A stretch of 56,450 nt of DNA from an uncultured virus (IMG/VR IMGVR_UViG_3300005083_000004). Lineage: Duplodnaviria; Heunggongvirae; Uroviricota; Caudoviricetes. Position numbers and translations under genes: made by a program. The stretch lies in the IMG/VR virus record IMGVR_UViG_3300005083_000004; one strand, written 5' to 3'. Each line of letters opens with the position of its first letter. Position 1 is the first letter of the stretch. Below the pieces are notes generated by a model. The model did not search any database. It was not told the DNA's origin and saw nothing but the letters and a program-made list of their open reading frames with translations. Below are positions 6,135-40,157 of this stretch, in pieces.

Positions 6135-6143
6135 TAATAAAAA

Positions 6144-6171: not shown

Positions 6172-6175
6172 ATTA

Positions 6176-6808
6176 TTATATACTTACAATTTTATATTGA
6201 AACATTTTTGATATTCTAGCATTCATATTTCTTTCAATACATGATTTTATGTTATCTTTAAATATTAATGGATTAATTAATGTATAAAGTACCAATAATG
6301 GAGAGTATACAATATTAGATAATGCAAATAATAAACCATATTTAATGTTCGATAATAATATAGTCATTTTTTCTATAATTATTTCATTTTCTTTGATAAT
6401 ATCACTATCGGAATCGTCGACTGAATATATTGGAAATTTATCAATGATATAGTAAAGTATATCATTGTAAACTTCTAATATTTGTTTAGATAAAATTTCT
6501 TCAATATGGATATTAATTATGAATGGTGATTCTATTGCATTAAAGTTTGAAACACATGATGAAATTGCAGATGATATCTGCGTTTCAATATATTGATATA
6601 TTGTTTCCATTTCCAATATTATTAAATCATTTATTTCAGGTGTTGAATCTAATAATATTATTGTGGGTTTATATGTTGCCAACGTATGTCGATAAATTTC
6701 ATTTGCTATTTCATCATTTGTCAATCTTAAATCCCACAGATCTGCATGAAGTGTGTGATTTTTTTCTAATATAACCGGATAGGTTTTCGTATCAGTCGTA
6801 TACATCAT
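6176..6808 (-). CDS. Hypothetical protein
   Basis: 210 aa ORF with GGGGAG SD and an upstream TATATATTAT motif. Confidence 0.65.
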   Translation of the reverse strand: MMYTTDTKTYPVILEKNHTLHADLWDLRLTNDEIANEIYRHTLATYKPTIILLDSTPEINDLIILEMETIYQYIETQISSAISSCVSNFNAIESPFIINIHIEEILSKQILEVYNDILYYIIDKFPIYSVDDSDSDIIKENEIIIEKMTILLSNIKYGLLFALSNIVYSPLLVLYTLINPLIFKDNIKSCIERNMNARISKMFQYKIVSI

Positions 6809-6852
6809 CTTTTAATTCTCCCTTTAACAAATTAATATTGTTTCTCTATTAT

Positions 6853-6862
6853 ATAATATATA
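6853..6862 (-). promoter_or_regulatory. Putative early promoter motif TATATATTAT
   Basis: Recurrent motif upstream of non-structural genes. Confidence 0.55.
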
Positions 6863-6903
6863 ATTGAAAATAAAGAATTCTTTATAATATATTTTTATTA
6901 GGT

Positions 6904-6913
6904 TATATATTAT
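6904..6913 (+). promoter_or_regulatory. Putative early promoter motif TATATATTAT
   Basis: Directly upstream of the GGAGG SD of the 6934 gene. Confidence 0.55.
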
Positions 6914-6933: not shown

Positions 6934-8192
6934 ATGAGAACTTCAAGAATTCCAAATATTGAAATTACATGTGAACATTGTAATACGAAATTCATGACAT
7001 CTAAAGAACGTATTTCAGAAAGAAAACGAAGAAATATTCCATTTAATTACTGTTCAGATTGTTTGAATAAAAGAAAAAGTGAAAATCAATCAAAACGTAA
7101 TAAGAAGTTATGGAAACAAGGAGTTTTTAATAATACTAATAATCAACAACAACGAGAACAACATTCAATCAAAATGAAACAGATTTGGAATAATCGATCA
7201 CACGAAGAAAAACAATTACATGGTCAAAAATGTCATCAAACTTGGAATGAGAAATCAGATCAAGAAAAACAAAAGTACATTAATAGAATTAAACAGATTT
7301 GGAGTTCATCAAGTTTAAAAGCTAAACAATCGCAATTGCAACAAAATAGATGGAATAATATAGATCATCAACAAAGAGAACAACATAGCCAAAAAATTAT
7401 ACAATCATTAGAAAATCGATCACAAGAAGAAAAACAGTTACAACGAGAACGTCAGAAGATATATTGGGAATCATTATCCCCAGAAGAAAAACAAGAGTTC
7501 AGTGATNNNNNNNNNNNNNNNNNNNNNNNNNNNNNNNNNNNNNNNNNNNNNNNNNNNNNNNNNNNNNNNNNNNNNNNNNNNNNNNNNNNNNNNNNNNNNN
7601 NNNNNNNNNNNNNNNNNNNNNNNNNNNNNNNNNNNNNNNNNNNNNNNNNNNNNNNNNNNNNNNNNNNNNNNNNTGGATTAATAAACCAGAAGAAGAACAG
7701 ATTGATCATATTAGAAATGTTATTCTCGGTAAATATTATAATGCTAATAGCATTAATATTGGTAATCATTTGGGAGATCAAGATTATAAATATAAATTAC
7801 TGAAACAATGGTTAGATGAAAACAAGATAAAGTATGAATATGAAGTTCCATATCTAAATAGCTCATATGATAAAGATGACAATGATTTTATTATACACCC
7901 TAAATCCTGGGATTTTGGAATATATAATAAAGATAATAAACTTGTATTATTGATCGACATCGATGGAAAAATTCATAATGGATCACTTGATAAACATTTA
8001 ACAAAGATACAACATAAGACAATTGAAAGTAGAGATAATCAACGAGTATATCAAACTGATAATATTCCATATTGTATAGTTGAATATAATCCAGACATAA
8101 CAATTGAACGAGCTAACGTAAATGAGTGTATTTACTTAATTGAAGATATACTTGGTTTACCAAAAACTTATCCAAGAAATTATTTATTATAA
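6934..8192 (+). CDS. Zn-ribbon + Trp-repeat + Vsr/DUF559-like (PD-(D/E)xK) endonuclease, probable free-standing homing endonuclease
   Basis: CEHC...CSDC N-terminus and repeated '(K/Q)xxWxxxSxEEKQ' helices. After the 167-N gap (7507-7673) the frame WINKPEEEQIDH... runs into the 7770..8192 ORF with YEYE...WDF...LLIDIDGKIH...RD. The two listed ORFs are most likely one gene split by gap-length error. Confidence 0.65.
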
Positions 8193-8195: not shown

Positions 8196-8225
8196 AAAGG
8201 GGAGAATTTCTCCCCTTTGTTTTTT
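8196..8225. terminator. Bidirectional intrinsic terminator
   Basis: AAAGGGGAGA-att-TCTCCCCTTT followed by a T run, between convergent genes. Confidence 0.8.
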
Positions 8226-11200
8226 ATGATTCAAATATCTCTTGAAGTTTTCTTTTTAGATCTACTAATACTCGGTTTGTTGCAATTGTAATTTGTAATG
8301 ATGTAAGCATACGTTTCCCGAGTGGAGATGGGGAACATAAACAACTGATTTCTTCGTCAGGATTTGATTCTGAAAATGGTTCATAATTTGGAGGTAGTAT
8401 ATATCCTAAGATATTCTTATTTGAACTGTACATTACTACTTTATCACCAATTGCCGGTTTATCTTTATGAGCAATATAGAATTCAATCAATATAGGAGTT
8501 TCTATACCTTTTATTTTTCCATATTTAGTTTCAACTTTAATATCATTTTCATTATTAAAATATCCTGACTTCATTGGAGATGGAGATTTATCATATTTAT
8601 TTATCAACTTATTTTTTTTATCAATTTTATTTTTATATCTATTCAATAATTTTTGTATTGATGGAGAGCAATCAGTTATATCACATGATATATATATTTT
8701 GATATCTACTAATTCTCCATCATGACTCGACATAACACCTTGATATGCAGATTTTAATAAATAATCTTGATCGTCTTGATCTAATTTCGACAATAGTTTA
8801 TTTATAGAAGCATCTTCATGTGATGTATCATTTTGAATCAAATATTCTTTTATTTTAACATGATCTCCAATATTTTTAATCATAATTATATTTGAATTAA
8901 TATCTAATGGATATTCTTCTTTAAAAACAATAGTTGTTTCCATTTGATTAGAAGCATATTCTGTAAAGAAATTTCCATCTTCATAATTCTCTGATGTTGC
9001 ATATAATGCAACTTTTAACAATGGTCCAATATTAAATCTTAATCCATTTAATGTTGAATATGTGAAGAATTTATTATGATATGCTAATACATCATCTTTT
9101 TTAAATGTATCTCCTTTTTTTAAAGGTGTATCTAATTGATTATCTAGATAAAATCCACCTCCACTATTTTTTACAATTTGATTACCTATATTAAATATTT
9201 GATATTTTTTATTTCCATACGGTTTATATTCAGCAATAACCATTCCGGTTTCATTATCAATCTCGACAATTCTTCCATCATATTTAGCATTAACTACATA
9301 ATCAGTTGATAATCTAAATCTCATATTTTCATCAATACCATTTGATATTAATGCAGGTCGAGCATTATTTAATGGAATCATATGTCCTGATTGTTTACAT
9401 GCAATTGCGGTTCTCGTAGTATCATCATGTGTAATAGTATTAGGAGTTGATAATTCTGGAGCAGAATATTTATTTACATCTTTCCATTTTTTATTTGCAG
9501 TATTCTTATTTTTTCTAAATCCTCGCATATTATCAATAGCTGGTTCATATACCAATTGTCGTACAACTCCAACTCCAGCATCTGGTGAAGTAGCAGATGC
9601 AATTTTTCCTACCATTGATGGCGTATATGATCTTTTTACTTCATTATATGCTTCATCCAAGTTTAATCCCGATTGTCCTTTTGGTGATATATTACAATCT
9701 TTATTCAATTCTCCAATTGGATTTAATGTTGAATAATCTTCTACTGTAGTCATCTTTAATAATTCTTTTACTACACAATCAGTAGGAACCGTCATCTTAC
9801 GTTTACCAATTGTATTCCTATAAGTTGAGTATTGCAAAGCAATTTGTTTATATATAATACAAGGAATAATTTCTGCATGGCGAACTCTATATAAATCGTC
9901 ATTTGCTTCAGATTTAAATGAATTATTATTCAATAATTTTATCGCTTCAATCATTAATCCAACTAAATCAGTTGGAAGATTTAATTCATTTAATATTTCT
10001 CTTGTAATTGGATCAATAAAGAAATCTTTAAAGTTATCTAAAATATTTAATACACGTGATGATCCAAGTATTAAAGATAATAAATCTGAATATATGTCTT
10101 TATTATTTAAATCAACAAAATTGATTTTTTTAGTATTAACAGATTTTAATGCATTTAAAATCATTTCATTTATTTCTGATGCATTATAATAAAAAAATCC
10201 ATCTTGAAATTGAATGACATTTTCATTTTTATTATTATTTGCTTTTTTAGAAGTATTATCAAATCTATATTGGATATTAGCTTTATTTAATACTGATTCT
10301 ATTCCTTCCCAATATCCCATCAAAAATATACACGGTATTTTCTTACTAGCAATTGTGGCAAATGCATAAAGATATTGTTTACCTTCTTTTATCGAATCAT
10401 AAAATAATTTTGCATCATTTGATAAATTATTATATATTAATTCAATTATTGTATCTGATAAATTTGTTTTACCAGTTTCACTATTACAAATTACAACTTC
10501 ATCTCCAAATTTACCAATAATAAATTCATTATCTTGTAATTTTTTATTATACATTTCTTTGATCTTTTTTAATTGAGTTAATTCTCTATTAAAGAATAAT
10601 TTTAATGTTCCATTACTGAACATCAGTATCGATTTACCAATTTCATCATATTCTAATGATGATATATATTTAATATTTATAACTGTACTATTACCAAATT
10701 TAAAATATTTTTTGAAATTTTCATTATTAGATAATTTTAATATTTTTGATATTCTAATGGTATTTCTTGATCCATATCTTCTTACAAATATTTTATTATA
10801 ATTTGAAACCATTTGACAAACATCAGGACCTGTTTTTGATAACGGTAGCATCATATTTTGATTCATTAATACTTTTTTGTTACCTTGGAGAAATAAGAAC
10901 TTTCCATCGATAAATTTCGGAACTTGAAATTTCATCACTGATACATGATTTAAATTATCTCGGATAGAAACTTCCCATGTTTCAATATAATTTAAACTAT
11001 CAGATGTATCAATAATATTAATATTTTCAATATAAAATCTATTATCTGTTTGATTTAAATGCTTTAATACATTAATGATATCTGTATCCATATATTTATC
11101 AATATAATTACTATGATAATTTTCAAATTTACCTTCTTTAAGATTTGGATTTATATTTTTTTGAGATGTACTATGATCACTAATTTCAATTTCTTTATCA

Positions 11201-12504
11201 ATAATTTTAATTTCACTTAATGCCTTAAATGATTTAGATTTATCACCACGAATTATAATTTTATCTTGTTTAGCCTTTAATTCTTTATCACGCGCACTAT
11301 CTTCTTCGATAATTTTCTTTACATATTGTCTTATTTTTGGTTTAACAATGTCATTTAATTCATCCATTGTAAATTGATCTTCAGTTGTTTTTATTTCTTC
11401 AGAGTCTTCTTCTATTTCAACTTTTTCTGGATTATTTGATAATGCATCAATAATATCAGTTATATCTTCTTCACTATCTATTTCTTCACTTGTTAGTTCT
11501 TCTTTATCAATTTCTAATTCTTCAGATTGGGTTAAATCATTATCTAATATATCTAAACGTGATAATTTATTATTTTGATTAATTTGTTGATTAACTGAAT
11601 GAATTAATTCATTATCTGAATCATCAAATGTATTTATATATAATGGATCTATTTGTAATATATCATCTTTTCCAACAGATACTTTTTGTGAAACTGTTGT
11701 AGGAACGTAATTATCTGTATCATCAATTTGTTCTTTTTCTTTTTGAATTAATACATCTAAATTTGTTTTCATTAATATAAACAAATTTTGTTTAAATATA
11801 TTCATTAATTTTGAATCAATATTATTCGGATTAAATACATATGATTGATTTTTATCAGCGATAATAATATCAAATGGAAATTGTTTAAATCCATTTTTCT
11901 TATCTTTATTATTAATGATTAAATAATATAAATGAAATAATGGATTAGTCTTTAATCTGCTAATATTAATTTTTCGATCAAATGCATAATCTTCAGCATT
12001 AAATAAATAAATATATTTAGGAGATATATCTCCTTTTAATACTTTATCCTGTTTAGGAGTATTATTAATTAAAAAAGAAATAAAATCTTTATTGATTGCT
12101 CCAAATGAACGATATTGAGCATTATTATTAAAAGCATTCATTACTTCGGTCATATCAACAAAACAACTTTGTTGAGGCAATGATAATTGAACTATTAATT
12201 TATGATCAGCTGCTAACTTTCTTATTGATTTTAAATTCCTAGTATTACGATAAGTACGTCCAAATGCTGAAATTCGTGTTATTGGATGTGAATGTAAATT
12301 CATATACGTATTAGGTGGTAATAATATAGATTTAGTTCTTAATAAATCTAATGATGTTGATAAATCATTTCCTAATAATTCAATGTAACATCCAATCTTT
12401 TGTCTTGGTAAATATATTCCACTTTTATTCAATTTCCTATATTGAATTTTATCATATTGAATTGCTTCAAATATTTCTAATTCTTCGTTATATAGTTCAT
12501 CCAT
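8224..12504 (-). CDS. Phage multisubunit RNA polymerase beta-like subunit (probable virion RNAP)
   Basis: RpoB motifs: ATSPDAGVGVVRQL (ETPEGxNIGL), HDDTTRTAIACKQSGH (HDDANRALM), NYEDG (NFEDS), GDKVVMYSSNKNILG (GDKxxGRHGNKGV), SPLGKRM (PSRM). Long N-terminal extension with an acidic linker; late-type motif upstream. Confidence 0.9.
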   Translation of the reverse strand: MDELYNEELEIFEAIQYDKIQYRKLNKSGIYLPRQKIGCYIELLGNDLSTSLDLLRTKSILLPPNTYMNLHSHPITRISAFGRTYRNTRNLKSIRKLAADHKLIVQLSLPQQSCFVDMTEVMNAFNNNAQYRSFGAINKDFISFLINNTPKQDKVLKGDISPKYIYLFNAEDYAFDRKINISRLKTNPLFHLYYLIINNKDKKNGFKQFPFDIIIADKNQSYVFNPNNIDSKLMNIFKQNLFILMKTNLDVLIQKEKEQIDDTDNYVPTTVSQKVSVGKDDILQIDPLYINTFDDSDNELIHSVNQQINQNNKLSRLDILDNDLTQSEELEIDKEELTSEEIDSEEDITDIIDALSNNPEKVEIEEDSEEIKTTEDQFTMDELNDIVKPKIRQYVKKIIEEDSARDKELKAKQDKIIIRGDKSKSFKALSEIKIIDKEIEISDHSTSQKNINPNLKEGKFENYHSNYIDKYMDTDIINVLKHLNQTDNRFYIENINIIDTSDSLNYIETWEVSIRDNLNHVSVMKFQVPKFIDGKFLFLQGNKKVLMNQNMMLPLSKTGPDVCQMVSNYNKIFVRRYGSRNTIRISKILKLSNNENFKKYFKFGNSTVINIKYISSLEYDEIGKSILMFSNGTLKLFFNRELTQLKKIKEMYNKKLQDNEFIIGKFGDEVVICNSETGKTNLSDTIIELIYNNLSNDAKLFYDSIKEGKQYLYAFATIASKKIPCIFLMGYWEGIESVLNKANIQYRFDNTSKKANNNKNENVIQFQDGFFYYNASEINEMILNALKSVNTKKINFVDLNNKDIYSDLLSLILGSSRVLNILDNFKDFFIDPITREILNELNLPTDLVGLMIEAIKLLNNNSFKSEANDDLYRVRHAEIIPCIIYKQIALQYSTYRNTIGKRKMTVPTDCVVKELLKMTTVEDYSTLNPIGELNKDCNISPKGQSGLNLDEAYNEVKRSYTPSMVGKIASATSPDAGVGVVRQLVYEPAIDNMRGFRKNKNTANKKWKDVNKYSAPELSTPNTITHDDTTRTAIACKQSGHMIPLNNARPALISNGIDENMRFRLSTDYVVNAKYDGRIVEIDNETGMVIAEYKPYGNKKYQIFNIGNQIVKNSGGGFYLDNQLDTPLKKGDTFKKDDVLAYHNKFFTYSTLNGLRFNIGPLLKVALYATSENYEDGNFFTEYASNQMETTIVFKEEYPLDINSNIIMIKNIGDHVKIKEYLIQNDTSHEDASINKLLSKLDQDDQDYLLKSAYQGVMSSHDGELVDIKIYISCDITDCSPSIQKLLNRYKNKIDKKNKLINKYDKSPSPMKSGYFNNENDIKVETKYGKIKGIETPILIEFYIAHKDKPAIGDKVVMYSSNKNILGYILPPNYEPFSESNPDEEISCLCSPSPLGKRMLTSLQITIATNRVLVDLKRKLQEIFES

Positions 12505-12536
12505 TGGTTATTAATCTCCTTATAATTTATAAAATG

Positions 12537-12552
12537 TTATCTGAAAAGTTTT
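12537..12552 (-). promoter_or_regulatory. Putative late promoter AAAAC-N8-TAA
   Basis: AAAACTTTTCAGATAA on the minus strand upstream of the RNAP beta gene. Confidence 0.55.
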
Positions 12553-12591
12553 CTCATCATATTCAAAAAAACACAAAATTATCAAACATGC

Positions 12592-12608
12592 GAGAACTTT
12601 TCAAATAA
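12592..12608 (+). promoter_or_regulatory. Putative late promoter AAC-N8-TAA
   Basis: GAGAACTTTTCAAATAA, an inverted near-copy of the 12537-12555 site (divergent pair). Confidence 0.5.
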
Positions 12609-12634
12609 AATATGTAAATTAGGGGGATATTATA

Positions 12635-13978
12635 ATGTTAGATATAAAAAAAAGCGAACCTACTTCAAGATTTAAAATTGATAATCGCAAAGTTTCTGCA
12701 GTTAATTCAAAACATTGGTCTAATCCAGGTGCATCATTATATGATAAACTTTTAGGGAGTTATATACAAACAGATGAAGAAGCTTTAAAAGAAGCTTATT
12801 TAATTGCCCCTGTTAGTAAAATTAAAAACGATCCACATCATGGAAGAACTCCATATTCTAGAAGTGGATGCAAATATCCTCATCATACTATCAAAGGTGA
12901 TACCTTAGTAGTCGATATTAAAGGTGTTCAAGCCGCATATGCACGAGCAAAACAAACTGGAGATTATGATAAAAATCCAAATATACGTAAACACTTACAA
13001 AAACATTATTCTGAATTAGAATTAGAGAAATCTGAACCAAATAATGAAGCTGTCAAACTTAACGATGATTTAGGAAAGAAATTTCAAATAAATGATAAAG
13101 AAATTTTAAATATACACAATTTATTTGAAACATATATTACTGAACTTCAAATAAATGCGGGCAATCAATCTAATCAGAAAGAAACTAATCAGGCACAACA
13201 AAATCCTCCTACTGAACAAAGTACTGCTGCTGATAATCAAACAGCTAAACCAACAGAATCATTAGATCAACCAGTAAACCCTGAACCTGTTGAAGATCAT
13301 AATAATAATCCTGTTGAAGGATTTGATAATCGACAAGAAAAAGATGGTAATGCAAGAAAAGCATTATATGAAGAATTTGTAAATAAACTTAAAGAAATCG
13401 TACCAAATACAACTTTTGGGACAATATTTGATAAAGATGCATTTAAAACAGAATTTAAAATTATCCCATATGAATTAAGATATTTTTATAGATTAGCTAA
13501 TCCTATTATGGTTGAAATTGATACATTTAAATTTATTCCATATGGTAAAGAATTACTTGATGCTCAATCTAAATATGGATTAGGAAAAAAATTATTTGTA
13601 TTTGCAACAGATAGTGATCGTCCAGTATTTTTTAATCAACTGGATAAAACAGTTTGGAATAATGAAATTAAAATAAGTGATTCATTTGATGCATTTATTG
13701 AAGTATTTAAAGATAATGGCAGTTTACCTGAAATAGAAGATCAAATCCCAGAAGAAAATGTAGATAATTCTGAAATAGAAGAAAATCCAGATCAATCCAC
13801 ACCTGAAGAAAACGCAACACAATTAGAAATTACAGATAATGCAAATGTTAAACAAGAAGCTGCATTTGGAAAATTTCCAACTAATAAAAAGAAGAAGAAG
13901 ATAAAAGAACCTAAATTATTTACTGAAGATGAATTTTATGAAATTTGGTATACAACATTGAATGACATGTTTGATTAA
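12635..13978 (+). CDS. Putative head-associated protein with a SUKH (SMI1/KNR4)-like domain
   Basis: 447 aa. N-domain KYPHH...LVV...GVQAAY...HLQKHY; Q/N/P linker; IPYELRYFY..N...FVFATD...VW...ISDSFDAFIE resembles SUKH; acidic tail. Confidence 0.5.
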   Translation: MLDIKKSEPTSRFKIDNRKVSAVNSKHWSNPGASLYDKLLGSYIQTDEEALKEAYLIAPVSKIKNDPHHGRTPYSRSGCKYPHHTIKGDTLVVDIKGVQAAYARAKQTGDYDKNPNIRKHLQKHYSELELEKSEPNNEAVKLNDDLGKKFQINDKEILNIHNLFETYITELQINAGNQSNQKETNQAQQNPPTEQSTAADNQTAKPTESLDQPVNPEPVEDHNNNPVEGFDNRQEKDGNARKALYEEFVNKLKEIVPNTTFGTIFDKDAFKTEFKIIPYELRYFYRLANPIMVEIDTFKFIPYGKELLDAQSKYGLGKKLFVFATDSDRPVFFNQLDKTVWNNEIKISDSFDAFIEVFKDNGSLPEIEDQIPEENVDNSEIEENPDQSTPEENATQLEITDNANVKQEAAFGKFPTNKKKKKIKEPKLFTEDEFYEIWYTTLNDMFD

Positions 13979-14004
13979 AAAAAATATATAAATATTAGAA
14001 ATGT

Positions 14005-14038
14005 AAAAAAAGAAGGAGAATTATCTCCTTCCTTTTTT
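14005..14038. terminator. Bidirectional intrinsic terminator
   Basis: A run-GAAGGAGA-atta-TCTCCTTC-T run between convergent genes. Confidence 0.8.
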
Positions 14039-14043
14039 AAAGA

Positions 14044-14532
14044 TTAATTGAATATTCCCATAGGGTTCTTATCAATATTTGGTAAGTTATTTTTATCATT
14101 TTCATTTTGAATAACTTCATATAATTTTATGAAATTATTGATCGCTTTTTTAGTATCTAACATCATAGTTGCATCTTTTGATTTTATTCCATATACAGAT
14201 AACGGAATAAATGATCCTTCAATTATTTCCTTGGCAGCTTTTAAAGTATTCAGATTTTCAACAGTCAAATCAATATTCAATCGTTGATTGCACGCTTTAC
14301 ATATATAGATACCATTTTTTGCATTTGGCTCTTTTACACTCATAGCTCGAATAACTGGTGTCAATATTTTTTTATTATTTACATAAACATGAGCCCAATG
14401 AATACATATTTTCTTTACTCTTTTCTTTTTCTTAACCTCGATTATTGAATCATCAACATTTAATTTTGACGATACAAAATTAATCGCATCTCTAAAGACA
14501 TCGGGGAAATTTTTAATTAATTTATTTTTCAT
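14044..14532 (-). CDS. Hypothetical basic protein with putative Zn site (CxH...CxxC), last gene of the tubulin operon
   Basis: 162 aa; CIHW and CKAC; overlaps the upstream gene by 11 nt. Confidence 0.65.
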   Translation of the reverse strand: MKNKLIKNFPDVFRDAINFVSSKLNVDDSIIEVKKKKRVKKICIHWAHVYVNNKKILTPVIRAMSVKEPNAKNGIYICKACNQRLNIDLTVENLNTLKAAKEIIEGSFIPLSVYGIKSKDATMMLDTKKAINNFIKLYEVIQNENDKNNLPNIDKNPMGIFN

Positions 14533-15355
14533 TTTGTTTTCCTTCCAATATATTTGATGTGTTAGGATTTAATACTGAATCTACGCATGATTTAATTCGA
14601 TCGAAGTCGTTTGATATTGTGATTAGATTAATCCAACCTACATGACTGTCATCCTTATTCGATATTTTTATATAATTATATAAAATATCTTTAATAACAT
14701 TTTTCTTTTGATCACTTAGTGTGGAAAGTACAAATAATGAAATATCTTCCTTTAAAGATGAAGATAATTTATTCATTATTTTACCATTTATATTTAATAA
14801 TATATTAGCAATTTTTAATCTACTATCTTTTTTATGTTTAGTATTTCTAAGAATAGAATCAATCATATTATCAAAATTAAAAACTTCATCTTTATTTAAT
14901 TTTGATAATTCTTTCATTAATGCAATAATAACATATTTATGAATTAATATTTTATCTGTTTTTGGGAATAACATATTAAATTGATTTTTATTTGGTAATA
15001 ATGAGAAAATTTTATATCCATTGTTATAGATTTGATCTAGAATATCGTCATCAATTTTATATTCCATAAATAATGTTAATATAAAGAAATGTGGAAAATG
15101 TTTCCTAATCAATTTTTTATCATTTTTTATCTTCTTTATAAGATTTTTGATCTTTTCAAAATTTTTATTTTTAATTTCAATCCTTACATTCATATCTGAA
15201 ATTAAAAATATAATTTCTTCAAGTGTCTCACATACTATCTTTTTATATTCTTTCTTTGAAACTTGATTTCTTTTTGGAATATCACTTAATAGAATTTTGA
15301 TCTCTTGATTAATTTTTATTAATGTCTTTTTTTGTTTTTTAGTTTTTTTAACCAT
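14522..15355 (-). CDS. Hypothetical Lys-rich helical protein (tubulin operon)
   Basis: 277 aa, GGAGG SD, very basic. Confidence 0.7.
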   Translation of the reverse strand: MVKKTKKQKKTLIKINQEIKILLSDIPKRNQVSKKEYKKIVCETLEEIIFLISDMNVRIEIKNKNFEKIKNLIKKIKNDKKLIRKHFPHFFILTLFMEYKIDDDILDQIYNNGYKIFSLLPNKNQFNMLFPKTDKILIHKYVIIALMKELSKLNKDEVFNFDNMIDSILRNTKHKKDSRLKIANILLNINGKIMNKLSSSLKEDISLFVLSTLSDQKKNVIKDILYNYIKISNKDDSHVGWINLITISNDFDRIKSCVDSVLNPNTSNILEGKQNEK

Positions 15356-15413
15356 TTTTAAAAATAACCCTCCGTAATTAATTATTCTTTAAATTATGAG
15401 ATTTATGGTAAAC

Positions 15414-16079
15414 TTATTTCCATTTACTATCATATCTATTTGATTTTTCTTCTTTATGATATTCATGTTTATTTTTATTTTTCCTATGATCTCGAATAAA
15501 CTCGTCATCTTTATCGAGTTTATCTAATCTTTTGATATATTCATTGATAAGTCCATCTTCCACATTTGGTTCATTATCAACTATTTTGATGTTTGTATCA
15601 TTTTTTACATCAATTATATCAATTACTTCTTCTATTGATTCTTCTTCATCTAGTGGAACAGGATCATTATCAGTATTTTCATCTTCTTCATATTCTTCAT
15701 CTTCAGTTTTTGTATCATCTTCTTCATATTCTATTAATTCTTCTATATCAGTTACACGTTGCTTTAGTTCTTCAATCTGTTTTTTAATGACTATTAGATC
15801 ATTTTTAAGAGTATTATTAATTTTTTCTACTTTATCTCTACACATTTCGTCAAATTTATTATATTGCCATTTTATCAATTGATCTTTGATTTGATCCATT
15901 ATCTCCTTTTTTAAATTAATAATATCTTTTTCTGTTAATGGTACTGGAATCTGTGTAGCAGGTATAGTTAATTCACCAATTGATTCATCGATTGGTGAAT
16001 TAGATTGATAATCGTCTACTTGATTATCAATTTCTATATTCACATTATTTCTATTTAGGTTTCGACGATATTTTGCCAT
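15414..16079 (-). CDS. Hypothetical coiled-coil protein with an acidic tract (tubulin operon)
   Basis: 221 aa; heptads IKKQIEELKQRVTDIEE, D/E-rich segment, basic termini; AGGAG SD. Confidence 0.7.
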   Translation of the reverse strand: MAKYRRNLNRNNVNIEIDNQVDDYQSNSPIDESIGELTIPATQIPVPLTEKDIINLKKEIMDQIKDQLIKWQYNKFDEMCRDKVEKINNTLKNDLIVIKKQIEELKQRVTDIEELIEYEEDDTKTEDEEYEEDENTDNDPVPLDEEESIEEVIDIIDVKNDTNIKIVDNEPNVEDGLINEYIKRLDKLDKDDEFIRDHRKNKNKHEYHKEEKSNRYDSKWK

Positions 16080-16101
16080 AACATTTATCTCCTAATTTGG
16101 T

Positions 16102-17244
16102 TTATTGGAATTTATTGAATAAATCATCTAATGATAAATCTGGACTTTCATCTTCAAGTTTTCTAATTTTTTCATCATTCAATTTGATTTTTTCGACATC
16201 GAATACAATTTTATCCTGTGATTTAACTCTAGATAATCTTTCATCTAACTCTTTTTGAATTTTTTGAATTCGATCTTTAATAGGAGATATTCCTGTACAT
16301 AAAATTGTGATTGTGTTATTAGTATCATCTGTTTTATTTGTAGCAATATTATAATATGCACAAGCTGGCTCTCCTAAATATGATCTAATTTTAGGTAGAT
16401 CCAGATTTAAATATTTATTTGAATCTGGATCTAAATAGCTCATTACAGCAATTGAGTGAATTATATTATCTCTATCAATTTCAACATGCATTGATCTTTT
16501 TTCGGCTTGAATTAATCTATCTTCGATGTCTTTAAGTTCAATTTGTTTTTCGTTAATGCCTTTTATTGTGAATATATTTAATCTTCCTGGAACAATTGAA
16601 ACCCATAAATCTTCATCATCCATATTGTGATGATCTGCTTCATAAATTGCTTTTCGTAAAAAGATATTATTAATATCTTCTACAATAGCATTATTAATTT
16701 CCAATATTGATTTATTTGGATCTGGATTTTCTCCATTATTATTGTCATATAACATATATATTACATTATCACCTGATCGTTGATATAACTCTTCAAGATA
16801 ACTCAATGTATTATTTAAACGATTATTCATTTCATTGATGCGTGGTAATACTCCAACTAAAATAAACTTTCCATCATATTTTTGGATTCCACCATTCAAT
16901 GCAGTATATATCATTGGCGCAATTCCTGATCCTGTGCCACCTGCGGTACTACTAATAATAAAATTATATTTTGTTGATCCTAGCATATCAGTAAATGTTT
17001 CATCCTTAAGAATATATTTAATATCATCTTTTAATGCTTTTTTAGCAGTACCCCTAACACCTCCTGATCCTCCATTACTGCCAATTAGAAATGATAATGT
17101 ATCTTTTGATTTTAAAAGATTCAAATCTTTTTCTGCAGTATTAATATAAATAGCATTTACATGTAATGGATCTGAGTCAAATATTTGTTTAGCAATTGTT
17201 CCTCCTGCTAAACCAATTCCGATAACTGAGATTAACTTTTCCAT
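16102..17244 (-). CDS. phuZ: Tubulin/FtsZ-family GTPase (PhuZ/TubZ-like)
   Basis: GIGLAGG, YINTAEKDL, GGSGG, signature TAGGTGSG, GVLP..E, LYDN, MDDEDL (T7 loop); C-terminal coiled coil ending LDDLFNKFQ. Confidence 0.9.
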   Translation of the reverse strand: MEKLISVIGIGLAGGTIAKQIFDSDPLHVNAIYINTAEKDLNLLKSKDTLSFLIGSNGGSGGVRGTAKKALKDDIKYILKDETFTDMLGSTKYNFIISSTAGGTGSGIAPMIYTALNGGIQKYDGKFILVGVLPRINEMNNRLNNTLSYLEELYQRSGDNVIYMLYDNNNGENPDPNKSILEINNAIVEDINNIFLRKAIYEADHHNMDDEDLWVSIVPGRLNIFTIKGINEKQIELKDIEDRLIQAEKRSMHVEIDRDNIIHSIAVMSYLDPDSNKYLNLDLPKIRSYLGEPACAYYNIATNKTDDTNNTITILCTGISPIKDRIQKIQKELDERLSRVKSQDKIVFDVEKIKLNDEKIRKLEDESPDLSLDDLFNKFQ

Positions 17245-17246
17245 AT

Positions 17247-17522
17247 TTAACCCTCCTTAACGATAACAATATTTAAATTTTTAACATTGTGAATGATAAA
17301 GAAATCTTTTATTGCTTCTAATTGTTTTTCACTTAAATCAAAATTATCATTGATATATAAATTTACCGTTTCTGGTAAATCTATATCACCAACAAATTTA
17401 ATATCTTTAATATCTGAAATATCTAATTCAATGTCAGCAATAATATCTTCTGGAATTGAACCAATAAAAATATTTGATCCGATTTCTGGAGCATTCTTAA
17501 ATTCGTAATATAGTACTTGCAT
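17247..17522 (-). CDS. Small acidic hypothetical protein, first gene of the tubulin operon
   Basis: 91 aa with AAGGAGG SD; its 3' end carries the SD of the tubulin gene (2-nt gap). Confidence 0.7.
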   Translation of the reverse strand: MQVLYYEFKNAPEIGSNIFIGSIPEDIIADIELDISDIKDIKFVGDIDLPETVNLYINDNFDLSEKQLEAIKDFFIIHNVKNLNIVIVKEG

Positions 17523-17563
17523 TTTGATTAACCCTCCTTAAAATTTTATTTATACTCACGATT

Positions 17564-17573
17564 ATAATATATA
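17564..17573 (-). promoter_or_regulatory. Putative early promoter motif TATATATTAT
   Basis: AATTATATATTATAAT upstream of the tubulin operon. Confidence 0.55.
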
Positions 17574-17583
17574 ATTATTTTTT

Positions 17584-18192
17584 TTAATGTTTATTATTTT
17601 TTTTAATTTTATGAAATAATGATTTGGATATATCCCAAATATTTTTATCCATATATTCAAATGTTATCTCAATTCTTGGTTTAATAGAATAATATTTATT
17701 AGCAGTTAATGATATGATAATATTATCATTTGACAATAATCCATGTTGAACTTCATCTAGAATAGATTTAATATAATTATCTAAATCTTTAACTGATAAA
17801 TTTGGTAATAATTTTAATTCACACATTAATGTCTCATTTATATTATAAGATGATGGTGTTTTCGCATAAAAATCAACATTAACTTTGCATGGAGTATTAA
17901 TAATAGGATTATCAATAGTCTTTAATAAGTCTTCAAAGAATTTCCCATTTTCAGCCGCATGAGGAACATACACTCTTCCAGCCATTGTAAATCTAGGTCG
18001 ACTACAAGGAATTGGTTCTTGATATAATATTAATGAATATATCTTCCAATCAATTTTACGATTTAATTTATCCATCGTTTTCATTAAATTGAGATCCAAT
18101 TCTTTTCCTTTAAGAATATATCTAATCCTATTATTTAAATCATTTGGAATTTTTGAATATTGACGATTATATTCATTTGATAATTTGTTCAT
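17584..18192 (-). CDS. rusA: RusA-like Holliday junction resolvase
   Basis: PIPCSRPRF, KDLDNYIKSILD, NDNIIISLTANKYYS.KPRIEI match RusA. Confidence 0.8.
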   Translation of the reverse strand: MNKLSNEYNRQYSKIPNDLNNRIRYILKGKELDLNLMKTMDKLNRKIDWKIYSLILYQEPIPCSRPRFTMAGRVYVPHAAENGKFFEDLLKTIDNPIINTPCKVNVDFYAKTPSSYNINETLMCELKLLPNLSVKDLDNYIKSILDEVQHGLLSNDNIIISLTANKYYSIKPRIEITFEYMDKNIWDISKSLFHKIKKNNKH

Positions 18193-18205
18193 ATGTTTTT
18201 TTGTC

Positions 18206-18568
18206 CTATGATTTCAAAAATAGTTCTTGATGTGGAAGTGATTTGGCAAATTCCTCAAAATGTTTATATTTTTTAAAAGGAATTCGCCGAGCATATTCAC
18301 GACATACTGCCTGGCTTATCATATCAGAATCATAAAGTAGTCCAAGATTAAGTGATTTCATAATTAGCATATCCTTAATCTCTTGATAATTTGTATCCCA
18401 ATATTCAACATTTCGTTTATCATAAGATACTTCAACATGGATATTATTTTCACTATCAATTTTATATTTAGTCTCACAATTTCTGTATAGAAAAGTTTTT
18501 TTGATAGAATTAATGAATTTTAGTAAATCTTCAAAGTAATAATCCATTAATTCATTAAAGGTAATCAT
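18206..18568 (-). CDS. Hypothetical protein
   Basis: 120 aa, GGAGG SD, ATGA overlap with the upstream gene. Confidence 0.65.
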   Translation of the reverse strand: MITFNELMDYYFEDLLKFINSIKKTFLYRNCETKYKIDSENNIHVEVSYDKRNVEYWDTNYQEIKDMLIMKSLNLGLLYDSDMISQAVCREYARRIPFKKYKHFEEFAKSLPHQELFLKS

Positions 18569-19143
18569 AATTTACCTCCAATTTTAGTTATATTTGGTTT
18601 TCCAATATAATTATATCCTCTTTCTAACCAGTCTGAATATAATATTAAAGCATATTTTAAATTAATTAATAATGGAATTGTTTTATTTAATAACATGAAA
18701 AATGTTACTTTTTCACCAAGATAATTAAACGGATTTTTTGATTCATAATAACTTACAACTTTTTGAATTTCTTCGAGACATTGATCCATTTCAGTAAATG
18801 GAGATCCAAGACCATTTAATATACTATATCTATTCATATATTGAGATTTTTCAATTTTTTTAAAAACCTCATTATCTATAATTAATGCTTTTAAAGCATT
18901 TTTAATACTATCAATATCAATTGATATTGGAACTTCAAATTCTCTTCTAGTGCCTGTTGCCATATATGTTCCAGCGCCATGAGAGTGAACAGTTCCCCCA
19001 CTATTAGCAGACATTCCAATTACAGTGAGATCATCTATTATATCAGTTAAACGATAACTCATTTGAGTAGTTAATACATTTCTATATACATTAATGCAAT
19101 TATTAACATTCGTTAAAACACCTTCAACATTAGATCCATACAT
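18565..19143 (-). CDS. Hypothetical protein
   Basis: 192 aa, GGAGGAG SD. Confidence 0.7.
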   Translation of the reverse strand: MYGSNVEGVLTNVNNCINVYRNVLTTQMSYRLTDIIDDLTVIGMSANSGGTVHSHGAGTYMATGTRREFEVPISIDIDSIKNALKALIIDNEVFKKIEKSQYMNRYSILNGLGSPFTEMDQCLEEIQKVVSYYESKNPFNYLGEKVTFFMLLNKTIPLLINLKYALILYSDWLERGYNYIGKPNITKIGGKL

Positions 19144-19207
19144 ATAAACTCCTCCACGATTGGTAAAAATATTAGATATATTGTAATACTATATCAAATA
19201 TTTTATT

Positions 19208-19217
19208 TATATATTAT
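19208..19217 (+). promoter_or_regulatory. Putative early promoter motif TATATATTAT
   Basis: Upstream of the DNA polymerase gene. Confidence 0.55.
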
Positions 19218-19256
19218 AACTATGAAATTTAATAATATAATAAGGAGATAAAATTA

Positions 19257-21230
19257 ATGACACAATTTCAACAAAATTATATGAATCGAATGGTTGAAAC
19301 AATTAAAAGAATCAACCCACAATACAATGATGAACAAATAATAAAAGTGGTAAATCGATTAATTAAATCACAAGGTCAAAATCCTGTTGCGATTTTACAA
19401 TCTGATATAAGAGAAGATATTACAAGTAATCTATTAGATGTATTTGAATATATTGATAATAAAAGACCGATTGTTAGTGGAAATGGTGTATTATTTAAAC
19501 GACATGATCAAGAATTAGCTCCAACAGTAACAATGATGATTGATTTAAAAAATCGACGAAAATTTGAGAAAAAAGAAATGTTCAAATATTCTCCAGATTC
19601 GCCAGAATATCGAATGTGGAATCAAAGACAACTTAATACAAAAGCAAACAATTTAAATGCTTTTTATGGAATATTAGCTGTAAAAAGTTGTGCGATATTT
19701 AATGAATATTGCCCAGGAGCAGTTACTGCAACTGCTAGATTATTAATATCGACAACGCTCAATACATGTGAAGGATTAATTGGTAATAATGTAACAATAT
19801 TTCATATCAATGATTTATTTGATTATTTAAATTGCATCATTCGAAATCATAAAGATGATAATATTGATGATATCCCAATTCCAAGTGATGATGATATTAT
19901 ATATAGATTATCAAAATCTTTTTATAATTATACTCCAGGGATTAAAGATATCATTGAAAAGTTTATTAAAAATTTAAATAGACATGATAAAACTTTTATA
20001 GGATATGCAAATAATTTAAATGAATTTTTAAATCTTCCAATTTGTCGAGAAAAAATTTTATCTATATTTGAAAAACTTCCACATGATTTAGATTTTAACA
20101 ATATTGATATTGATAAATGGAAGAAATATAATCCAAATAAAAAAATGGAATCTATTAAAGATTATCGAAAAATGGTTGCAACTCAACTTTTCTATGATCC
20201 ATATAATATTCCCGATTGTATTAAAAAAGAAATTTCAGATTTAACTAATTTAGTTGAAAAATATGTATTTGTAAAACATCTTGTATGCGATGCTGAAGCA
20301 CGAGCTTTAGCATTACAACGAAATTGTGTTGTTGTTATGGATACAGATTCAAATATGTTATATTGTGCAGAATATAAAGAATTAATTAATAATATGATTA
20401 ATAAAGATTATGGTCGAACGTCAAAAGATAATAATGTCATTGCGATTAATATACTAATGTCTATTGTATCTAAATTAATAGATAAAATTGTCAGATATGC
20501 ATTAGAATTAAAGAATGTTAGTCCAGAATATCAATTGCATATGACATTTAAGAATGAATTTTATTATGGGAAAATGTTGATATCAAATGTTAAAAAAAGA
20601 TATACAGGTAATATTATAGTCAGAGAAGGAAATTATTTAGATAAATATAAAGTTGATATGAAAGGATTTGATTTTAAAAAGAGTAATGTCCCTGTTAGTG
20701 TTGAACAGAGATTCATGAAAATAATTAAAGAAAAAATATTTGAATCTGATGATATTAATAATATGGATCAAAATATCATTGATGAAGTTCAAAAATTTGA
20801 AAAAGAAATTGTCGATTCAATCAAAAATGGCGATAAATCATATTATAAATTATCTACTTTTAAAGAGGCCGATGCTTTTAAATTTCCAGAACGTATGCCA
20901 CAATGGAATGGAAGTATGTTATGGAATATGAAATATCCAGATAAAAAAATAGAGCCAATGGATAAAATTTATATTGTTAATATTAATCCATCTAAATTGG
21001 AGATTCCTAAAGAGTATACATCTGATAAACGCAATGTAATTTGTATACCAAGTACATGTAAAGATATTCCATTAGAGATATTAAACGCAGTTGATGCGGA
21101 TATGATAGCTGCTGGATTAATTTCAACATTTGGAAGTATACTTGATATATTTGGAATTGTTCGATACAAATATAAATCATCAGATAAGTCTAGGAAATAT
21201 GAAAAAGTTACAAATATTATCGAAATTTAA
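19257..21230 (+). CDS. Family B DNA polymerase, fingers/palm/thumb subunit of a split phiKZ-type polymerase
   Basis: SGNGVLF, motif B QLNTKANNLNAFYG, motif C VVVMDTDS, KNEF, KKRY, KGFDFKKS. No exonuclease domain or canonical motif A visible. Confidence 0.85.
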   Translation: MTQFQQNYMNRMVETIKRINPQYNDEQIIKVVNRLIKSQGQNPVAILQSDIREDITSNLLDVFEYIDNKRPIVSGNGVLFKRHDQELAPTVTMMIDLKNRRKFEKKEMFKYSPDSPEYRMWNQRQLNTKANNLNAFYGILAVKSCAIFNEYCPGAVTATARLLISTTLNTCEGLIGNNVTIFHINDLFDYLNCIIRNHKDDNIDDIPIPSDDDIIYRLSKSFYNYTPGIKDIIEKFIKNLNRHDKTFIGYANNLNEFLNLPICREKILSIFEKLPHDLDFNNIDIDKWKKYNPNKKMESIKDYRKMVATQLFYDPYNIPDCIKKEISDLTNLVEKYVFVKHLVCDAEARALALQRNCVVVMDTDSNMLYCAEYKELINNMINKDYGRTSKDNNVIAINILMSIVSKLIDKIVRYALELKNVSPEYQLHMTFKNEFYYGKMLISNVKKRYTGNIIVREGNYLDKYKVDMKGFDFKKSNVPVSVEQRFMKIIKEKIFESDDINNMDQNIIDEVQKFEKEIVDSIKNGDKSYYKLSTFKEADAFKFPERMPQWNGSMLWNMKYPDKKIEPMDKIYIVNINPSKLEIPKEYTSDKRNVICIPSTCKDIPLEILNAVDADMIAAGLISTFGSILDIFGIVRYKYKSSDKSRKYEKVTNIIEI

Positions 21231-23152: not shown

Positions 23153-23464
23153 ATGAATAATTTAGTTATATCAGAAATAAAAATTAAACCAGTAAATCAT
23201 CCAAATAATAAAAATCATAAAGCGGATGTATCAATAGTACTTAATGATTGTCTCGTGATAAGATCGATTGCAATAATTGAAACATCTGAAAAAAGATTTA
23301 TTGGATTTCCATCATATTTATCTAAAAAAAATAATACGTTTGTGAGTCTAGTAAACCCAATAACATCTGAATGTCGTAACTGGTTCGAAAAATTTATTTT
23401 CGAAAAATATGATGAACTAATTACATTGACCGATAATTATGATAAGGAGAATAATTATGCGTAA
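23153..23464 (+). CDS. spoVG: SpoVG-family nucleic-acid-binding protein
   Basis: ISEIKI...KADVSIVLNDCLVIRSIAII...FIGFPS...F.SLVNPITSECR...IFEKY follows the SpoVG consensus. Confidence 0.85.
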   Translation: MNNLVISEIKIKPVNHPNNKNHKADVSIVLNDCLVIRSIAIIETSEKRFIGFPSYLSKKNNTFVSLVNPITSECRNWFEKFIFEKYDELITLTDNYDKENNYA

Positions 23465-24047: not shown

Positions 24048-24061
24048 CTTAATTTTTGAAT

Positions 24062-24071
24062 TATATATTAT
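24062..24071 (+). promoter_or_regulatory. Putative early promoter motif TATATATTAT
   Basis: Heads the 24121-27194 operon that includes CTP synthase. Confidence 0.55.
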
Positions 24072-40133: not shown

Positions 40134-40157
40134 ATTATTTTTTTTAAATATATGAAA

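Follow-up and report, generated by a model that had tools for sequence, protein, structure and literature searches.

A TubZ-type tubulin and a candidate co-factor gene in a probable early transcription unit of an AR9-like jumbo phage

Two settings are known for phage tubulins: the PhuZ spindles of phiKZ-like phages, by which the chimallin nucleus is centred, and the TubZ-TubR-TubY system, by which the plasmid prophage c-st is partitioned. Another tubulin gene, with four neighbours, is encoded in the DNA of the uncultured virus analysed here (56,450 nucleotides, hereafter the window), and the question raised by this locus is which of these neighbours, if any, work with the tubulin. Five minus-strand genes extend from 17522 to 14044, bracketed by an AR9 early-promoter match and a hairpin terminator, as an earlier note on this DNA had recognised. 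According to the ORF calls, they encode, in this order, a 91-aa protein (17247-17522), a 380-aa tubulin (16102-17244), a 221-aa protein (15414-16079) lying between the tubulin and c1 genes, a 277-aa protein assigned below to family c1 (14522-15355) and a 162-aa protein assigned to family c4 (14044-14532), the start of which lies 11 nt inside the c1 gene. The earlier note had proposed that all four neighbours are dedicated to the tubulin, and its descriptions of the single products were accurate: indeed, (i) the 91-aa product is acidic, with a pI of 4.14, and its gene is positioned for translational coupling, (ii) the 221-aa product, a putative coiled-coil protein, is likewise acidic (pI 4.49), (iii) the 277-aa protein is very basic (pI 9.67) and modelled as all-helical (pLDDT 73.6), and (iv) the 162-aa protein, also basic (pI 9.64), has a CxH..CxxC arrangement whose residues C43, H45, C78 and C81 do not vary among the 24 relatives aligned.

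The 380-aa protein is, by family, a genuine tubulin/FtsZ GTPase, as had been claimed. It matches the Pfam family Tubulin (PF00091) over residues 5-161 (E 8.8e-13, 49.4 bits for a cut-off of 33), and the nucleotide-binding loop GGTGSG occupies residues 102-107. In the 64 tubulin sequences compared, G102, G103, G105, S106, G107 and D209 are invariant and T104 and D212 nearly so; from the alignment and the general features of the family, D209 and D212 are presumably placed in the catalytic loop, by which the active site of the adjoining subunit is completed. The earlier note had left the protein to be placed against PhuZ, TubZ and FtsZ, and the profile matches classify it as TubZ-type (c-st), not PhuZ-type. 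The closest solved relative is TubZ of Clostridium phage c-st, matched over its full length by the family profile in a PDB search (E 3e-30), followed by an archaeal tubulin/FtsZ-like protein (3zid, 1.1e-20, N-domain), RepX (9.5e-18) and FtsZ (2.5e-14). When the same profile was run against whole records, c-st TubZ was recovered at full length (8.2e-33, 109.7 bits), whereas PhuZ was recovered over the N-domain only (3.7e-5, 19.5 bits). Likewise, phrog_17961, which contains c-st TubZ, matches residues 4-374 of the window tubulin, while phrog_4733, which contains PhuZ, matches residues 4-213, the N-terminal GTPase domain, to which the similarity with PhuZ is limited. The pairwise identity with c-st TubZ is 24%. 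The Pfam model of the c-st TubZ C-domain (PF22340) has no match in the window tubulin at E 0.1 (c-st TubZ itself, 2.8e-47); this model may be narrow. The model of the PhuZ C-domain (PF22334) has no match in it either (PhuZ itself, 1.7e-37).

The tail LSLDDLFNKFQ, pointed out in the earlier note, is present at the C-terminus. The window tubulin and c-st TubZ share a long C-terminal region and an acidic-aromatic tail, and they align end to end, including the c-st tail ...DINDFFSKYM; in c-st TubZ, the acidic-aromatic tail is the partner-binding site. A hydrophobic-hydrophobic-x-x-aromatic tail is found in 53 of the 64 distinct tubulins, and the strict form [IL]F..[FY] in 38.

The RNA polymerase and the early-promoter motif both mark the phage itself as AR9-like, in agreement with the earlier note. 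The best tblastn matches of the RNA polymerase beta subunit are to Listeria phage LPJP1, Staphylococcus phages PALS_2 and S6 and Bacillus phage PBS1, with 29-33% identity to PBS1/AR9-like phages over residues 450-1425, and the subunit matches phrog_3148 (E 2.2e-135). This kinship and the early-promoter consensus are shared with the AR9/PBS1-like phages of Bacillota. A Gram-positive host is plausible. The AR9-like isolates LPJP1, PBS1, S6, phiR1-37 and JD-Fnp1 were searched as whole genomes with a tubulin profile that detects c-st TubZ and even PhuZ; the tubulin was found in none of the five, nor was c1. The PhuZ phages (phiKZ, 201phi2-1) are, like the window phage, jumbo phages with multisubunit RNA polymerases and a tubulin with a conserved C-terminal tail; however, Chimalliviridae possess chimallin. 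The search for chimallin suggested in the earlier note gave no match in window ORFs of at least 90 aa (phrog_4795/PF25677; 56 of ~180 kb covered), and none of the eight related contigs with a completeness of 92-100% has chimallin (phrog_4795; phiKZ control, 1.8e-232).

The published AR9 early-promoter consensus is AAATATATATTAT-(6N)-G (PMC5312081). A match to this consensus (AATTATATATTAT + 6 nt + G) is located at 17557..17576 on the minus strand, upstream of the 91-aa gene and 42 nt from its ATG. Including the motif TTATATATTAT at 17564-17574 (-), the window has seven copies, where 2.0 copies of the core would be expected and where seven were reached in 0/100 shuffles; five of the seven are intergenic and directed toward a start codon, and a G is found at the seventh base past the motif in six, including all five intergenic ones. 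Of the 64 distinct related loci, 27 have the core ATATATTAT in the 160 nt preceding the tubulin gene, compared with 2.2% of background windows. At the other end, a hairpin with a T-run on both strands (14004..14039) lies between convergent genes and is the likely terminator of the five-gene unit; it is the sole terminator-like site on the minus strand from the promoter motif to the end of the run. The true start of the same-strand run is at 19143, with three further minus-strand genes upstream, including that of a RusA resolvase, and no terminator-like site was found between these genes and the 91-aa gene; read-through transcription from upstream is therefore possible. The promoter and terminator matches indicate that the five-gene region is probably an early transcription unit, in which the tubulin would be switched on right at infection.

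Relatives of the window neighbours were searched for in 80 related loci. Conservation with the tubulin, which the earlier note expected of the neighbours in general, was found for the 277-aa and 162-aa proteins and did not extend to the 91-aa and 221-aa proteins. The 91-aa gene ends 2 nt before the tubulin ATG, the ribosome-binding site of the tubulin gene is within its last codons, and an identical 14-nt sequence, TTAAGGAGGGTTAA, precedes both genes. A search of 1.84 billion representative proteins with its product returned no sequence but the product itself, which has neither a relative in the 80 loci nor a Pfam or PHROG family above threshold. Similarly, the 221-aa protein, which has 61 D+E residues and basic ends, matches only itself in a search of 5.8 billion proteins and is without a relative in the 80 loci and without a Pfam or PHROG family. 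Since neither protein has relatives, their link with the tubulin is beyond a conservation test and at best lineage-specific, and the best reading of these two acidic proteins is that they are lineage-specific additions.

The c1 profile HMM matches the 277-aa protein with an E-value of 3e-7 and the c4 profile HMM matches the 162-aa protein with 7.5e-5, in each case as the best of 83 window ORFs, the corresponding hhalign probabilities being 76% and 75%. These moderate scores, together with matching gene positions, suggest that the former is a divergent c1 member and the latter a c4 member. Tubulin, c1, c4 and a virion protein encoded 26 kb away are the only genes common to the window and the related loci.

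Gene c1 is the commonest gene following this tubulin in related jumbo phages: of the 64 distinct loci, 48 have it on the tubulin strand and at most 1 kb downstream (median spacer 108 nt), while the upstream neighbour varies (15 families and 17 singletons). This adjacency is kept across tubulins only 22-34% identical to that of the window and, in the tubulin tree, is present on all deep branches, the non-adjacent state being confined to one clade. In that clade, of 12 distinct loci, an AAA ATPase gene takes the place of c1 after the tubulin, and c1-c4 are found 37-86 kb from the tubulin, beside topoisomerase II genes (four of four genomes checked). In terms of gene content, c1 was detected in nine of 11 tubulin-bearing contigs, the other two being without a detectable copy, versus one of seven tubulin-less contigs (Fisher p = 0.013, kinship ignored). 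Because related genomes share ancestry, the cases counted here for synteny and co-occurrence are not independent of one another. Gene c1 is also absent from phiKZ and c-st. As for c4, it is present in five of the seven tubulin-less relatives and is therefore not a dedicated tubulin partner; in three contigs, it is 14-19 kb away from the tubulin-c1 pair. The model of the 162-aa protein (pLDDT 76.6) predicts two N-terminal helices, a beta zinc-ribbon-like unit with C43/H45/C78/C81 and a long helical hairpin. On the best reading of these distributions, c1 is the sole plausible dedicated co-factor of the tubulin among the four neighbours.

We consider, with a probability of about 0.5, that this locus of the AR9-like jumbo phage encodes a TubZ-like filament system acting early in infection, with c1 likely working with the filament. 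The early unit would probably be read by the injected virion RNA polymerase, and the tubulin most likely forms filaments by GTP-dependent polymerisation shortly after infection; the filaments would move or position the phage DNA or the replication site, a function expected to be similar to that of PhuZ. The c1 protein would be an adaptor or regulator of the filament, likely the one neighbour that works with it, and may act through the conserved acidic-aromatic tail of the tubulin, as the comparison with c-st TubZ suggests. The c4 protein, in turn, would be the product of a widespread gene of the phage group, belonging with the neighbouring genes for DNA topology and recombination and not with the tubulin.

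It is possible, if doubtful, that the gene order is merely inherited, the tubulin acting alone and c1 and c4 being DNA-binding accessories of an early replication, topology and recombination block. PhuZ is thought to act alone, and no conserved partner gene of PhuZ was found in the portions of the PhuZ literature consulted. Such a reading is in line with the persistence of c1-c4 beside topoisomerase II genes, whether after the tubulin or 37-86 kb from it, with the frequency of c4 in tubulin-less contigs, with the basic character of both proteins, and with an intact c1 gene in one complete tubulin-less contig, with the c15 and UvsX genes after it as usual. Moreover, the tubulin tail is conserved to an equal degree where c1 is not adjacent and therefore does not track c1. 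However, inheritance alone accounts poorly for an adjacency kept through such divergence of the tubulin and in many upstream contexts, which in the window persists without a nearby topoisomerase gene or any other shared neighbour, and for the rarity of c1 in tubulin-less relatives and its absence from the five AR9-like isolates.

An improbable alternative is a type III-like partition system, by which the genome would be segregated as a plasmid in a carrier or pseudolysogenic state, with c1 or c4 in the place of TubR and an acidic, putatively coiled-coil protein in the place of TubY. Indeed, the closest characterised relative of the tubulin is c-st TubZ, which has the same kind of tail, and both loci have a small gene directly upstream of the tubulin and a gene of ~220-240 aa directly downstream, an order resembling c-st tubR-tubZ-tubY; c1 and c4 are basic, and c4 has a zinc site. 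In relatives, c4 also ends in a lysine cluster, a feature linked to DNA and membrane binding in the TubY paper (PMC7762940), but the c4 protein of the window is without this cluster. The TubZRC/TubY systems of c-st and of Bacillus plasmids comprise a winged-helix TubR, a MerR-type TubY and tubC repeats, whereas the window unit has no TubR- or TubY-like protein and no tubC-like repeats were found near it. The gene in the position of tubR encodes the acidic 91-aa protein, which has no blastp similarity to TubR (c-st TubR, pI 9.68) and no DNA-binding Pfam family, and none of the four neighbours has a MerR/HTH family match or blastp similarity to c-st TubY, although c-st TubY, used as a control, matches MerR_1 at 1.5e-11; the Pfam and blastp results thus agree with the earlier note, in which nothing TubR- or TubY-like was seen among the partners. 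A search of 12400-19400, part of a ~180-kb genome, gave no iteron-like array, the sole repeat of this region being a two-copy 19-nt A/T tract at 17574-17612. Furthermore, neither c-st nor any of six TubZ-like loci of bacterial genomes has c1 or c4, and no gene for an integrase, a repressor or plasmid replication was noticed in the 56 kb. Finally, c-st is a plasmid prophage, whereas the promoter match of this AR9-like phage is of the virion-polymerase early type, part of a lytic-type programme (PMC5312081).

As to the proposal that each of the four neighbours serves the tubulin as a dedicated adaptor, anchor or regulator, the five genes on one strand with one promoter match and one terminator, and the 91-aa gene placed for coupling and sharing a 14-nt ribosome-binding site with the tubulin gene, would fit it, but with two proteins without any relative, c4 common in tubulin-less relatives and c1/c4 37-86 kb off in one clade, it is very unlikely and was not upheld.

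In a tentative extension of the favoured reading, the TubZ-type tubulin and c1 might form an undescribed two-part cytoskeletal system, ancestral to a large clade of nucleus-less uncultured AR9-like phages and switched on by the virion polymerase, in which an adaptor unrelated to TubR or TubY would couple phage DNA or the replication/topoisomerase machinery to a treadmilling filament, and to which the window phage would have added two acidic proteins. The tubulin and c1 proteins are small and amenable to standard polymerisation and co-pelleting assays.

In summary, the tubulin and the two uncharacterised genes common beside it in relatives point, at the level of sequence, to an undescribed viral cytoskeleton kit. 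The locus represents a third setting for phage tubulin, that of AR9-like jumbo phages whose near-complete relatives are without chimallin, TubR and TubY. If c1 is a co-factor, it would represent a new class of adaptor for bacterial and phage tubulins, and would offer an experimental route to the role of tubulin in a large phage that builds no nucleus.

The window encodes, behind an AR9-type early-promoter match, a TubZ-type GTPase whose nucleotide-binding motifs are intact and which is followed downstream by members of two protein families, c1 (represented here by a basic protein modelled as helical) and c4 (represented here by a protein with a putative Cys/His zinc site). Five consecutive ORFs on the minus strand (17522-14044) encode proteins of 91 aa (17247-17522), 380 aa (the tubulin, 16102-17244), 221 aa (15414-16079), 277 aa (14522-15355) and 162 aa (14044-14532), with spacers of 2, 22 and 58 nt and an overlap of 11 nt between the final two genes. 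The first two genes are each preceded by an identical 14-nt sequence (TTAAGGAGGGTTAA), and since the copy that precedes tubulin lies within the final codons of the 91-aa gene, translational coupling of the two is plausible. A terminator-like hairpin (14039-14004, minus strand), the sole such site downstream, directly follows the last gene, and the AR9-type early-promoter match (AATTATATATTAT, then 6 nt and a G) is located at 17576-17557 on the minus strand. The bracketing of five same-strand genes by one promoter motif and one terminator, proposed in the earlier note, was confirmed by these ORFs, the promoter match and the single hairpin. However, three more minus-strand genes, a RusA resolvase among them, lie upstream of the unit, with no terminator-like site found between them and the unit on the minus strand.

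The early-promoter consensus of Bacillus phage AR9 was mapped as AAATATATATTAT-(6N)-G (PMC5312081), and the putative promoter upstream of the five genes matches it. Its core (TTATATATTAT) occurs seven times in the window against 2.0 copies expected, a number reached in none of 100 shuffles; five copies are intergenic and oriented toward a start codon and two lie inside ORFs, a G occupying the seventh base after the core in all five intergenic copies and in one of the two intra-ORF copies. Further cores followed by 6 nt and G include (i) two back-to-back intergenic copies (6853-6863, minus; 6903-6913, plus) between the divergent genes 6176-6808 and 6934-7803, (ii) an intergenic copy (19207-19217, plus) preceding the DNA polymerase gene at 19257, (iii) an intergenic copy (40124-40134, minus) preceding the gene 39737-40105, and (iv) a copy (24061-24071, plus) about 75 nt into an ORF whose called start is a TTG at 23986, and which may therefore truly begin further downstream. 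Four masked or unresolved runs of N (713-814; 7507-7673; 35796-35882; 39845-39988) interrupt the ORFs 71-3265, 6934-7803, 35753-38215 and 39737-40105, and none of them touches the tubulin unit. A 33-nt tandem repeat (56373-56450; 2.4 copies, 95% identity) reaches the window end, at the 5' end of a minus-strand ORF that extends beyond it.

Relatives of the tubulin were sought in IMG/VR, where 154 stretches encode one; the best 80 of the 154 (25-36% identity), many of them on contigs of 200-290 kb, were examined. Removal of duplicate tubulins left 64 distinct ones, the window's included. The 380-aa protein, which is acidic (pI 5.07), scores above the Pfam Tubulin cut-off (49.4 bits vs 33), and in the alignment of the 64 distinct relatives G102, G103, G105, S106, G107 and D209 are invariant, T104 and D212 nearly so; the claim of a tubulin/FtsZ GTPase was borne out by this score and these conserved residues. 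When the family profile was compared with solved structures, the best match among those listed was TubZ of the Clostridium phage c-st (E 3e-30), aligned from residue 2 through to the C-terminus, tail included (family ...DIFxKF, c-st ...DINDFFSKYM), followed by the archaeal tubulin/FtsZ-like 3zid (N-domain only), RepX and FtsZ, with PhuZ, the phiKZ-type spindle tubulin, absent among the 60 matches listed. On whole phage records, the profile found c-st TubZ at full length (109.7 bits) and phiKZ PhuZ over the N-domain only (19.5 bits). On the basis of this full-length relationship, the protein is called TubZ-type by overall similarity, and it is considered a divergent lineage of its own, an additional member of an already known kind of tubulin. 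It shares 24% identity with c-st TubZ over 404 columns; neither the Pfam C-domain model of c-st TubZ nor that of PhuZ matches it; and a quick maximum-likelihood tree does not separate c-st TubZ, PhuZ and one long-branched locus at its base. A tblastn search of GenBank phages returned zero matches, even at E 5, and no relative above 37% identity was found among 5.8 billion proteins.

In c-st, the tubulin gene lies between tubR (81 aa), upstream of it, and tubY (239 aa) on its downstream side, positions that are mimicked in the window by the 91-aa and 221-aa genes. However, neither the 91-aa (pI 4.14) nor the 221-aa protein (pI 4.49) has similarity to TubR or TubY, the charge of the former is opposite to that of TubR, and the impression, first gained by eye, that no partner is TubR- or TubY-like has held. 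TubY is described as contributing a coiled coil and a lysine cluster, both of which bind DNA and membrane (PMC7762940). The unit differs from type III partition, having neither TubR nor TubY and no centromere-like repeat array found around it (12400-19400). A search of 1.84 billion representative proteins with the 91-aa protein and a word-indexed search of 5.8 billion proteins with the 221-aa protein each returned the query only, and neither protein has a relative in the 80 related loci. The system also stands apart from the PhuZ/chimallin spindle. The search for chimallin, the phage-nucleus shell protein, that the earlier note had called for gave no match to phrog_4795 in eight of eight related contigs (CheckV 92-100% complete; phiKZ control 1.8e-232) and none in the window ORFs, which cover 56 kb of a contig of 180,450 bases.

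Conserved neighbours were identified by calling ORFs in the 80 loci, clustering them and building family profiles, with a recount on all six-frame ORFs for the 64 distinct tubulins; the locus gene calls are simple ORF calls and all counts are drawn from related genomes. A c1 member (about 330 aa) follows tubulin within 1 kb on the same strand in 48 of 64 loci, a count that takes in a sub-family joined to c1 by hhalign at 94%. An AAA ATPase occupies this place in 12/64, neither is found there in 3/64, and one locus ends early. In 29/64, the 4 kb downstream of tubulin include a c4 member (about 170 aa). The commonest orders are tubulin, c1, (c8), c4, topoisomerase II and tubulin, c1, c15, UvsX; upstream of tubulin, 15 families and 17 singletons occur, the commonest seen 19 times. 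An apparent third arrangement ('c33') was discarded as an antisense ORF from the greedy gene caller, c1 and c4 following tubulin there as well. In one relative (L001, 7161-7488), the 327-nt tubulin-c1 spacer carries internally repeated sequence, the repeats of which show as recurring peptide strings in antisense ORFs.

The homology of the window proteins surfaced only with the family profiles: single-sequence phmmer searches of the 80 loci, run for each of the four partners and for four proteins that flank the unit, gave self hits only. Among the 83 ORFs of the window, the c1 profile retrieved the 277-aa protein (E 3e-7; runner-up 0.14) and the c4 profile the 162-aa protein (E 7.5e-5; runner-up 0.13), and hhalign gave 76% over 116 columns for the former and 75% over 117 columns for the latter. 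These moderate profile scores, together with matching position, suggest that the two proteins belong to c1 and c4. C43, H45, C78 and C81 of the 162-aa protein align to the four invariant Cys/His columns of c4. The conservation of partners with tubulin expected by the earlier note thus extends to c1 and c4 and not to the 91-aa and 221-aa proteins, which are without relatives. A virion protein encoded 26 kb from the unit belongs to a family of the related loci (E 3.3e-96), and no window gene beyond tubulin, c1, c4 and this one falls in their families. In relatives, c8, c15 and c38 are the genes that separate c1 from c4; their proteins are not significantly related to one another or to the 221-aa protein. 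A locus search of IMG/VR with the c1 alignment yielded at least two loci.

In the tubulin tree, obtained by a quick method, the loci with the AAA ATPase form one clade (support 99), to which the window is sister (support 97), its long branch (1.86) making this placement unsure, and the c1-adjacent state occurs on all deeper branches; from this distribution, tubulin-c1 adjacency looks ancestral and lost once. The C-terminal tail is retained in loose form in 53/64 tubulins whether or not c1 is adjacent, which argues for a long-standing trait of the filament, or of some partner, rather than a marker of c1. In 27/64 distinct loci, the 160 nt preceding tubulin contain an AR9-type core (ATATATTAT) (counted for the window from the 91-aa gene; the 27 are related and not independent events), against 2.2% of same-strand windows in the 64 loci; the 6N-G is likewise present in 14 of the 27. 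This excess over background indicates that tubulin would head an early unit across the group of relatives.

The model of the 277-aa protein (pI 9.67), predicted with an alignment, is all-helical (pLDDT 73.6, best at residues 140-270). No convincing structural relative was found by Foldseek against the PDB (best E 0.048), a wide VIA search returned generic helical-repeat proteins only (best Z 6.8), and the BFVD matches were three uncharacterised 'Myoviridae sp.' proteins from uncultured phages (E 0.004-0.03). The 162-aa protein (pI 9.64) is predicted to consist of two helices, a small beta unit with the four Cys/His and a long helical hairpin at 91-147 (pLDDT 76.6); Foldseek gave no specific match (best E 1.6), and the best VIA match (Z 8.1) came from the hairpin only. 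Nothing above 0.80 was found for either protein in the ESM Atlas. No Pfam or PHROG assignment was obtained for c1 or c4, at most 4 of 44 c1 members and 3 of 24 c4 members sharing a Pfam family. Most c4 relatives carry a C-terminal lysine cluster and after it G-x-W; the window protein ends ...PMGIFN, without the cluster. Complex predictions of tubulin with the 277-aa or the 162-aa protein, each with an alignment of its own and run without controls, gave a score of 0.00 (mark 0.32) and bear neither way.

In three genomes with the AAA-type arrangement (L091-L093; G009, G006, G002), c1 and c4 are adjacent to each other 37-86 kb from tubulin, in the order topoisomerase II subunit, ~700-aa gene, 185-aa gene, c1, c4; this position downstream of topoisomerase II genes is repeated in a fourth such genome. 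The c1-c4 pair of this clade therefore keeps its place beside the topoisomerase genes although it is separated from tubulin. The synteny could reflect no more than gene order inherited as part of an early replication block, a rival reading regarded as possible and rather doubtful. To sample the clade independently of tubulin, contigs were fetched through a shared virion protein (c3), present in 199 stretches of which 80 were examined, and 13 new ones were searched whole. Tubulin was found in 6/13, c1 in 5/13 and c4 in 10/13. Where tubulin is present, c1 occurs in 4/6, directly after it in three of these four; where tubulin is missing, c1 occurs in 1/7 and c4 in 5/7. In three contigs, 14-19 kb separate c4 from the tubulin-c1 pair. 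Pooled with a further 5/5 tubulin-bearing contigs, c1 is present in 9/11 tubulin-bearing vs 1/7 tubulin-less contigs (Fisher's test, p = 0.013, relatedness not corrected for). The one tubulin-less exception (L181, G014:C1:84000-96000, 4659-5507 and 5694-6890 on the minus strand; 100% complete) encodes c1 as an intact 282-aa ORF followed by two c15 genes and UvsX, the usual genes at this place, and the expected tubulin place holds two unrelated ORFs (143 and 246 aa) in one frame with a single TAG between. Neither c1 nor c4 was found in phiKZ, in c-st or in six TubZ-like loci of bacterial genome assemblies; among five AR9-like isolates, c1 was found in none and c4 gave one marginal match (E 0.004). 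In our reading, c1 is linked to tubulin, not obligately, and c4 is a gene common to the clade at large and often near tubulin; its presence in tubulin-less contigs removes c4 from the dedicated partners.

The neighbouring RNA polymerase beta-type subunit (8224-12504, minus strand; 1426 aa) is closest to the subunits of AR9/PBS1-like phages from Listeria, Staphylococcus and Bacillus (29-33% identity), to which only residues ~450-1425 align, and next to those of Yersinia phiR1-37 and the Fusobacterium JD-Fnp phages. For its first ~450 residues, which include a long acidic stretch, the phage collection yielded no match. Whole-genome searches of the five AR9-like isolates with a profile sensitive enough for PhuZ detected no tubulin. 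In keyword searches of open-access text, and in passages from the phage G paper, the core-genome paper on Chimalliviridae and two overviews of jumbo phages, no description was found of tubulin in AR9-like phages or of conserved partner genes beside such tubulins. A SpoVG homologue (23153-23464, plus strand; PF04026, E 1.6e-17) fits a Bacillota-type host and is not proof of one. Host-like genes of the window also include a full CTP synthase (25382-27016, plus strand; E 4.2e-64) and a family C69 peptidase (52377-54071, minus strand; E 7.5e-30); a CTP-synthase scan of the genomes for a host hint gave nothing.

Taken jointly, gene order, promoter matches and family distribution are consistent with a mechanism in which the tubulin would polymerise early in infection and position the phage DNA or the replication site, c1 would serve as adaptor or regulator of the tubulin filament, and c4 may act on DNA alongside the topology and recombination genes, a reading to which a probability of about one half is given.
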